From the NCBI GenBank assembly GCA_050943075.1, contig JBMNOM010000007.1, forward strand, positions 1 through 24,000: 24,000 bases of DNA. Reading direction: 5' to 3'. This DNA is from Christensenellales bacterium. Its GTDB lineage: Bacteria > Bacillota > Clostridia > Christensenellales > UBA1242. This document shows, piece after piece, positions 11,026-11,679 of the stretch. Numbering within the stretch: the first letter of the stretch is position 1; every line of letters starts with the position of its first letter. The notes below the pieces were generated by a model. That model did no database searches. It was not told where the DNA came from and saw only the letters and a list, made by a program, of their open reading frames with translations. The position numbers were made by a program, and so were the translations under genes.

Positions 11026-11679
11026 ATGTCAGAAGACAATCCTAACCCTTCCAAGATTAAAACAGTTGCCGAAGGTAAAGAAAAAGAAAAAAACAATAAA
11101 GATAAAAAGCAAGTTAAAACAGCAGGTAAGGCAGAAAAAAATGCTTGGGTTTGGCCACTTAAAGTGTTTGTTTTGTCAATGTCACTTTCCATTGTGTTCA
11201 GTATTGCAAGTGAATCGCTTATGAGTGTTGCTGGAATTGTGCTTTCAATTCTCACAGTTTTGTTGTTAATTTTCATTTCAATTATAACCGACATAATTGG
11301 TGTTGCAGTTGCAGTTTCCACGCCTGAGCCATTCAACTCAATGAGTGCAAGAAAGGTTAAGGGTGCAAAAGAGGCTTTGCTTTTAATTAAAAATGCGGAT
11401 AAAGTTTCTGTTATTTGCAACGATGTGATTGGTGATATTTGTGGCATTGTTTCTGGTGCGGGTGGTGCTGCCATTGTTGCGCGCATAACTTCGTCCATCA
11501 CAAGCCCAAGCATCATTATGCTCATCACGGCGTTAACTAGTGCCATTATTGCGGGCTTAACAATTTCAGGAAAATCATTTGGCAAAAACATTGCAATGGG
11601 GCAATCTGAAAAAATTGTTTTACAACTTGGCAAAATTTTAAGCCCTTTCAGATATGAAAAGAAAAACAATAAAGGTTAA
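11026..11679 (+). CDS. oapA: four-TM membrane protein with DxxxD motif; candidate OLE-associated protein A
   Basis: 217 aa with AAGGAG SD 7 nt upstream. It has a Lys/Glu-rich N-terminal tail (about 40 aa) and four hydrophobic segments (about aa 41-63, 68-97, 138-155, 163-183). The D133-V-I-G-D137 motif is at the start of TM3, with a related TDIIG in TM2. The gene is immediately downstream of the large RNA. The mirror ORF on the minus strand (11013..11669) has no SD. Confidence 0.6.
   Translation: MSEDNPNPSKIKTVAEGKEKEKNNKDKKQVKTAGKAEKNAWVWPLKVFVLSMSLSIVFSIASESLMSVAGIVLSILTVLLLIFISIITDIIGVAVAVSTPEPFNSMSARKVKGAKEALLLIKNADKVSVICNDVIGDICGIVSGAGGAAIVARITSSITSPSIIMLITALTSAIIAGLTISGKSFGKNIAMGQSEKIVLQLGKILSPFRYEKKNNKG

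Follow-up and report, generated by a model that had tools for sequence, protein, structure and literature searches.

The open reading frame at positions 11026-11679 of the window, by which we mean the whole 24,000-nucleotide stretch of DNA that was analyzed, is very probably oapA, from an uncultured Clostridia-type bacterium that has a low GC content and forms spores, and its product is very probably the subunit of the OLE ribonucleoprotein that is integral to the membrane. The original prediction had proposed an OapA-family membrane partner for the RNA encoded upstream, and this central inference was borne out. By BLASTP, the protein shares 35% identity with a published OapA sequence across 173 aa (E 4e-27), and the homology was also detected when a profile of 38 homologs was compared with the same sequence by hhalign (probability 99.9%, E 8e-32). 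Moreover, the protein carries the DxxxD motif, an OLE RNA lies upstream of its gene, and OLE adjoins the homologous gene in 77 of the 79 loci in which this could be tested. The protein-RNA pair is already described, and the window protein is a divergent, ordinary member of the OapA family.

The oapA gene and its OLE RNA

The features of the gene and of the DNA around it are the following:

10110-10704, + strand: OLE RNA, full length (Rfam RF01071, 390.9 bits, E 9e-112)
10719-10748, + strand: terminator-like hairpin from a consensus scan, with an 8-bp stem and a 4-nt loop, 15 nt after the OLE match
10949-10977, + strand: promoter-like site, TTTGCA, 17-nt spacer, TATAAT (consensus match, 10/12, with the TG of an extended -10)
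11015-11020, + strand: ribosome-binding site AAGGAG, read from the sequence, 5 nt before the ATG
11026-11679, + strand: oapA coding sequence, ATG start, 217 aa plus stop (ORF call and OapA homology)
11700-11733, + strand: terminator-like hairpin plus T run, 3' of the oapA stop (consensus scan)

The reading frame was recovered with the coordinates, strand, ATG start and length first proposed for it, and it encodes a basic protein (pI 9.7) of 22.9 kDa. No Pfam match was found for the antisense ORF at 11013-11669. The OapA sequence used for comparison was taken from the supplement of Kretsch et al. 2025 (PMC12286853), as text machine-read from a PDF table in which a few letters may be missing; in this text the DxxxD motif falls at 98/102, versus D100/D104 in the literature.

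Relatives of the protein are numerous. The 90%-identity collection held 5121 of them, the best being 72% identical, and the exact window sequence was absent from a collection of 15 billion proteins. Searched against 1.84 billion, the profile of the 38 relatives returned 1443 cluster representatives at E<=1e-3, and 555 at E<=1e-30; most of the top 150 matches were 170-270 aa long. The NCBIfam search of the window protein gave no model, only noise matches. Some of the homologs are labeled "Mg2+/Co2+ transporter CorB" or "CBS domain containing-hemolysin-like protein" in public sources.

OLE RNA is the sole Rfam family found in the 24-kb window, and its match spans model positions 1-616 of 616, well above the gathering score of 50, and is thus not truncated. 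It is preceded by ruvX and DUF1292 genes and, further on, by murE, mraY, murD, and ftsW, and after oapA the order continues with argR, recN, spoIVB, a gene for a 206-aa protein without family, smc, and ftsY. The same gene order was found in three close relatives (L081, L082, and L084). The window has a GC content of 32.9%, and the loci nearest to it in genomes belong to uncultured Clostridia MAGs, at 53% identity or less.

To describe how constant this arrangement is, we used a scan with one genome per species, which gave 586 confirmed relatives and from which 80 loci were kept. With the OLE of the window as query, nhmmer located, in 76 of the 80, an OLE RNA that directly precedes the gene on its strand. 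One locus (L008) was left out of the adjacency count, as no more than 25 nt precede the gene there, and Rfam added another (L071), which gives the 77 of 79 testable loci mentioned above. An OLE also lies directly upstream in the close relatives L081-L084. Homologs occurring widely apart from the RNA, which would have spoken against the proposed partnership, were therefore not what the survey showed. Adjacency is not absolute, since OLE is missing from the surrounding 5 kb in two loci (L009 and L078), and a permissive-threshold search upstream of them for a divergent OLE found nothing. In the first, tatD abuts the oapA homolog; in the second, the upstream region holds an AAA_21/RloB-like pair and 640 nt of unmatched non-coding DNA.

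The OLE match ends 321 nt before the start of oapA, on the same strand, and this spacer is very poor in GC (17.8%). The hairpin that follows OLE has a T-rich tail of seven T, one A, and four T, and folds at -10.2 kcal/mol (z = -4.24 against 200 shuffles), while promoter-like sites in the whole region are no more frequent than in shuffles of that region. Judged from consensus matches only, OLE seems to have a terminator of its own and oapA a separate promoter. In H. halodurans, ole is situated inside a large operon and is additionally served by a promoter of its own (PMC9723947).

Across 73 loci, the median gap between OLE and the start codon was 30 nt, and it exceeded 321 nt in two loci only. 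Start codons were picked heuristically in these loci, producing a few impossible negative gaps, and medians are given for this reason. In the close relatives, the gap was 56-69 nt (L081-L083) or 240 nt (L084), and blastn of the window's spacer against the 84 loci gave no match. Like the long tail described below, the long spacer is a real but local variation; it is narrower than the lineage, because the closest relatives L081-L083 have such short ones. The longer tail and the separate promoter had been put forward as lineage-specific features of this gene: they fit its anatomy, the promoter as a consensus match, while the lineage-wide scope does not agree with the spacers of these relatives.

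Predicted membrane topology, N-terminal tail, and conserved residues

The protein was divided as follows, the helices being those of an AF2 model:

11026-11148, + strand: N-terminal lysine/glutamate-rich tail, aa 1-41, with 11 K and 7 D/E; predicted to be disordered and to lie in the cytoplasm (alternatively, a signal-sequence n-region)
11149-11229, + strand: helix 1, aa 42-68, with a nearly invariant W43 and without a CNNM counterpart
11236-11316, + strand: helix 2, aa 71-97, carrying the invariant D89
11284-11310, + strand: ITDIIGVAV, aa 87-95, in helix 2 (D89 at 11290-11292)
11317-11394, + strand: cytoplasmic loop, aa 98-123, with conserved P102, M106, K110, G113, and K115
11395-11496, + strand: helix 3, aa 124-157, carrying DxxxD
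11419-11445, + strand: NDVIGDICG, aa 132-140, whose D133 and D137 lie 9-13 residues into helix 3
11422-11436, + strand: DxxxD, D133 to D137, corresponding to D100/D104 of H. halodurans OapA (PMC9723947)
11506-11601, + strand: helix 4, aa 161-192, ending in GKSFGK (G182, K183, K187)
11605-11664, + strand: C-terminal amphipathic basic helix, aa 194-213 (6 K/R in aa 193-217)

The model had a mean pLDDT of 82.3, with values above 90 in the core, and the Kyte-Doolittle profile agreed with its four helices, so that the four hydrophobic helices and the charged tail of about 40 aa seen in the original prediction were both found. Two short helices (101-108 and 114-122) are modeled in the loop between helices 2 and 3. 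By charge count, 11 K/R fall in the tail, 5 in the loop at 98-123, and 6 at the C terminus, whereas the short turns at 69-70 and 158-160 are uncharged; hence, all the strongly basic segments are separated from one another by pairs of helices. According to the positive-inside rule, basic segments face the cytoplasm. Because of this spacing and this rule, the protein is predicted to be N-in/C-in with four spans. K110, K115, K126, K183, and K187, which are all invariant or at least 90% conserved in the 38-sequence alignment, would then be in cytoplasmic segments, their sidedness being derived from the charge distribution.

The tail itself has no hydrophobic stretch in residues 1-41, and its pLDDT is below 50 for residues 1-34. 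In 73 loci, the N-terminal segment before the conserved Trp had a median length of 19 aa (10th-90th percentile, 13-31), was always basic, and could not be aligned; that of the window protein, at 41-42 aa, is among the longest. It is about 33 aa longer than in the published OapA, since the conserved Trp is residue 43 here and residue 10 there. The tail could contact RNA, as was first suggested for it, serve as positive-inside ballast, or belong to a signal sequence. Those conserved basic residues to which RNA binding has been attributed in the literature are located in the loop and after helix 4, outside the tail.

The N terminus of OapA was treated as a signal sequence by Lyon and Breaker (PMC12265935). 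Extended to the present protein, the N-terminal 60 residues or so would be cleaved off, leaving a mature three-helix, N-out, CNNM-like protein whose tail never meets the RNA. It is true that CNNM domains have three helices, that helix 1 lacks a counterpart in them, and that the residues S-I-A (59-61), as read from the sequence, could serve as a -3/-1 cleavage site. Nevertheless, residues within helix 1 are conserved among the representatives of 50%-identity clusters (W43 in 146 of 150, S62 in 118, and E63 in 92), AF2 packs this helix on the bundle with a pLDDT of about 85, and OapA has been described with four transmembrane helices (PMC12265935, PMC11332333). We consider cleavage improbable and retain the four-span topology.

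Conservation was evaluated in two sets. In the wide set of 151 sequences, composed of 150 representatives of 50%-identity clusters and the window protein, D89 and D133 were present in all 151, and D137 in 149, the other two having E. The glycines G136 (150/151) and G144 (151/151) and the lysines K183 and K187 (148/151 each) were nearly as constant or fully so. In the alignment of the 38 relatives, which are 44-72% identical, the invariant positions were W43, S62, D89, G92, P102, M106, G113, D133, G136, D137, C139, G140, G144, I180, K183, and K187.

NDVIGDICG in helix 3 and the related ITDIIGVAV in helix 2 were both located where the original prediction had placed them. However, the (T/N)D(I/V)IG word by which they had been related is only partly conserved in the wide set. 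The aspartates D89, D133, and D137 are invariant or nearly so, whereas T88 is not conserved, being mostly Phe, and N132 is variable; for this reason, the common word is better given as D-h-h-G, where h is a hydrophobic residue. A bare DxxxD arises in 13% of shuffles of the window protein and is therefore weak evidence on its own, and two D[IV]IG words arose in 0 of 20,000 shuffles. The strong evidence for the motifs is their conservation.

The resemblance of the two motifs had also been taken as a hint of a two-repeat architecture, that is, an internal duplication of a two-helix unit bearing one motif each. The rarity of the paired word in shuffles and the invariance of both aspartates are what one would expect from it. 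Against this, hhalign of residues 40-112 versus 113-192 aligned 8 columns only, the motif itself, with a probability of 0.4-1%. In addition, the motifs belong to helices 2 and 3, which are oppositely oriented and not equivalent in a 2+2 repeat; the flanking T88 and N132 are not conserved; and helices 2-4 match the three-helix CNNM fold, with helix 1 added, making the arrangement 1+3. The duplication is hardly credible and was rejected on the grounds of the motif-only alignment and of the position and direction of the two helices. A better reading of the resemblance is that both helices present an Asp followed by a small residue to the same region of the cytoplasmic leaflet. Counted from the cytoplasmic end of its helix, D89 is at 8 residues (helix 2), and D133 and D137 are at 9 and 13 (helix 3), and the three aspartates would be neighbors in space.

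Relation to the CNNM fold

The predicted fold of the protein is shared with a known class of transporters. The top six Foldseek matches in the PDB were MtCorB (7m1t, 7m1u) and CorC (7cff, 7cfg) entries, with probabilities of 0.99-1.00 and TM-scores of up to 0.61 on the target, and all the lower-ranked matches had probabilities of 0.13 or less. In sequence, the similarity is much fainter. Pfam gave the window protein a sub-threshold match to CNNM/DUF21 (PF01595), of 16.4 bits versus a cut-off of 28.4 (E 0.007), and searches of the PDB sequences with phmmer and with the family profile found no CNNM chain, so that the relation is visible only by fold and by weak profile matches. The CNNM matches of several homologs start at helix 2 and cover profile positions 1-129. 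By hhalign, the family was also compared with the CorC, CorB, and CNNM4 membrane domains, taken as real PDB sequences, and residues 78-210 aligned on CorC 12-133 (E 1.3e-3, probability 18%). Because the Pfam matches begin at helix 2 and the hhalign match covers 78-210, helices 2-4 can be regarded as the CNNM core and helix 1 as an addition.

In the hhalign alignment, which is weak, G182-K183...G186-K187 of the window protein falls on the CNNM G-E...P-K; with a probability of 18%, any mapping onto the CNNM Mg2+ site is tentative. No CBS or CorC domain was found by Pfam in the window protein, which ends 25 residues after helix 4. The relation of the OapA fold to CNNM is itself already published, OapA being described as weakly homologous to CNNM, without the CNNM proline, and told apart by its DxxxD motif (PMC11332333).

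Given this fold, the weak Pfam match, the CorB and hemolysin-like names of some sources, and the two loci without an adjacent OLE, the protein might be a stand-alone CorB/CNNM-type Mg2+/Co2+ transporter module that is independent of OLE, the adjacency reflecting only a conserved gene order. However, the Pfam match stays below its cut-off, the CBS/CorC domains are missing, and GE..PK is replaced by GK..GK. Furthermore, the DxxxD specific to OapA is present, the homology to the published OapA is direct, OLE is adjacent in nearly all the loci surveyed, and binding of OapA to OLE is published (PMC7936274). An independent transporter is therefore very improbable, and the protein is treated below as the OapA subunit of the OLE particle.

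Proposed role in the OLE particle and comparison with known systems

The functional knowledge on OapA comes from H. halodurans. There, OapA binds OLE RNA in a 2:1 ratio and localizes it to the membrane (PMC7936274), and cells that lose ole or oapA become sensitive to cold, ethanol, and more than 2 mM Mg2+ (PMC7936274, PMC9723947). Cells depend on the OLE complex to tolerate cold, short-chain alcohols, and a modest rise in Mg2+ (PMC7936274, PMC9723947, PMC12265935, PMC11332333). The double mutant D100A/D104A has a more severe effect than the deletion, except when OapB, OapC, or the RNA sites of these proteins are inactivated (PMC7936274, PMC9723947). The dominant-negative phenotype that the original prediction had given for a DxxxD mutant is correct, and corresponds to this mutant, PM1 (PMC9723947, PMC7936274).

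Since every sequence feature of the published model is present in the window protein, the same role in the OLE particle was assigned to it. In the mechanism that we propose, OapA would dimerize through its CNNM-like helices, and OLE would be held by the conserved basic cytoplasmic face (R109/K110, K115, K126, K183, K187) rather than by the variable tail. The acidic intramembrane cluster formed by D89, D133, and D137 would serve a cation-linked activity related to the CNNM type of Mg2+ handling, and the OLE RNA would take the place of the CBS/CorC regulatory domains that OapA lacks. Our confidence is high in the OapA identity of the protein, and moderate in its cation-linked activity.

OapA fused to another domain was encountered on rare occasions. 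Two proteins (P0160 and P0163, at loci L085 and L086) join OapA to a type I phosphodiesterase/nucleotide pyrophosphatase domain. A search around oapA, covering the window and the remaining 84 loci, revealed no phosphodiesterase gene outside these two.

A more speculative extension would make OapA an RNA-gated translocator or sensor of divalent cations and not a passive anchor. In it, D89, D133, and D137, at a similar depth in the cytoplasmic leaflet, would replace the Ser/Asn/Glu Mg2+ site of CNNM, whose Glu is K183 here; oapA would be uncoupled, with the terminator and its own promoter allowing the protein:RNA ratio to be tuned (published models suggest 2:1 or higher); and the phosphodiesterase fusions would give the OapA platform an enzymatic output. 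Taken jointly, these proposals are unlikely. The family-wide invariance of D89 and the replacement of Glu by Lys at GE..PK indicate concrete residues that could be mutated to look for a role of OapA beyond anchoring. The rare spacer, with its terminator-like hairpin and promoter-like site, could likewise help in studying the stoichiometry of the complex. The practical value of the identification is correct annotation, as the homologs named "CorB" or "CBS domain hemolysin-like" have no CBS domain.

Among known systems, the window protein is to be compared first with OapA of Halalkalibacterium halodurans (BH2780, WP_010898928.1) and its orthologs in Bacillota. It resembles them in being small (OapA is of about 20 kDa) and basic, in its four predicted helices, in the DxxxD of helix 3, in the basic residues on the cytoplasmic side, and in the position of its gene directly downstream of OLE. 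It differs from the published OapA in its tail, which has 41 aa versus about 9 aa there, and from other OLE loci in its AT-rich spacer of 321 nt, containing a terminator-like hairpin and a promoter-like site, where the median elsewhere is about 30 nt.

The fusion proteins are like OapA in their N-terminal 190 residues, which are typical of the family and include DxxxD, and in lying behind a full-length OLE (417.5 bits). They differ in about 370 extra C-terminal residues that match Pfam PF01663 (E 6e-18), a domain absent from the window protein.

The CNNM/DUF21 domains (PF01595) of CorB, CorC, and MpfA are alike in helices 2-4, in the two short cytoplasmic helices, and in the C-terminal helix, whereas the window protein lacks their CBS pair and CorC_HlyC domain and adds an N-terminal helix and DxxxD. 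The CNNM sequence GE(I/L)xPK becomes GKxxGK in OapA, with the Glu turned into Lys and the Pro lost. Finally, CNNM transporters of the MpfA type anticorrelate with OLE and have been proposed as the all-protein counterparts of the OLE particle, in which OLE replaces the CBS/CorC domains (PMC11332333, PMC12265935).

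Genomic setting of the OLE-oapA pair

The window and its closest relatives have in common the gene order murE-mraY-murD-ftsW / OLE-oapA / argR-recN-spoIVB-x-smc-ftsY, in which the large RNA OLE and the gene of its membrane-protein partner, OapA, lie between two conserved flanks. The features considered in the window are the following:

5042-9933 and 12325-21691, flanks of OLE-oapA in the shared gene order
10719-10748, terminator-like hairpin in the OLE-oapA spacer
10949-10977, promoter-like site in the OLE-oapA spacer
11680-12324, oapA-argR intergenic region, with a conserved segment at 12086-12296
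16348-16968, + strand, 206-aa ORF between spoIVB and smc

No Pfam match was obtained for the 206-aa ORF, and its position and length (207 aa) are kept in three of the close relatives (L081, L082, and L084).

The spacer between OLE and oapA (10705-11025; GC 17.8%) is 321 nt long in the window, while elsewhere its median length is ~30 nt, and a blastn comparison with 84 related loci gave no match to it in any of them. On the other side of oapA, a segment of ~200 nt located 5' of argR showed 74-82% identity to the equivalent position of ten other loci, distant ones included. Because the repeated words in this segment (TGAATAT../TGCATAAT..) resemble ARG boxes, it is probably an autoregulated argR promoter, a candidate suggested by its sequence.

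OapA fused to a phosphodiesterase domain, and OapA without a nearby OLE

Two of the 150 family representatives (drawn from 50%-identity clusters) are fusion proteins, P0160 and P0163. In both, residues 1-190 are a typical OapA with the DxxxD motif intact, followed by a C-terminal domain of ~370 aa that matches Pfam PF01663 (type I phosphodiesterase/nucleotide pyrophosphatase) with an E value of 6e-18 and, weakly, ENPP7 in the PDB. A full-length OLE (417.5 bits) is immediately 5' of the fusion gene. This rare arrangement occurs on three contigs, which derive from two sources. It was found neither in the window nor in the other 84 loci, and no mention of it was found in the literature searched.

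DxxxD is also intact in two OapA homologues, in L009 and L078, for which no OLE was found within 5 kb. The former has tatD 116 nt upstream; the latter is preceded by an AAA_21/RloB-like gene pair and by an AT-rich stretch of 640 nt to which no Rfam family matched. The genes in question are:

L085 4001-5755 and L086 1383-3137, OapA-phosphodiesterase fusion genes
L009 4983-5591 and L078 4986-5546, OapA homologues without a nearby OLE

Gene calls and names of OapA homologues

Several representatives (P0208, P0273, P0224, P0218, and others) are 300-385 aa long. Their OapA part begins at residue 100-190, and the N-terminal extension that precedes it matched no family; these are probably gene calls that run upstream through the OLE RNA region. 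Some homologues of ~200 aa (e.g., P0009, P0065, P0088, and P0118) are publicly named "CBS domain containing-hemolysin-like protein" or "Mg2+/Co2+ transporter CorB". The proteins bearing such names are without a CBS domain, and the names were probably transferred via weak similarity to CNNM, the membrane domain (Pfam PF01595) of the CorB/CorC Mg2+ transporters.
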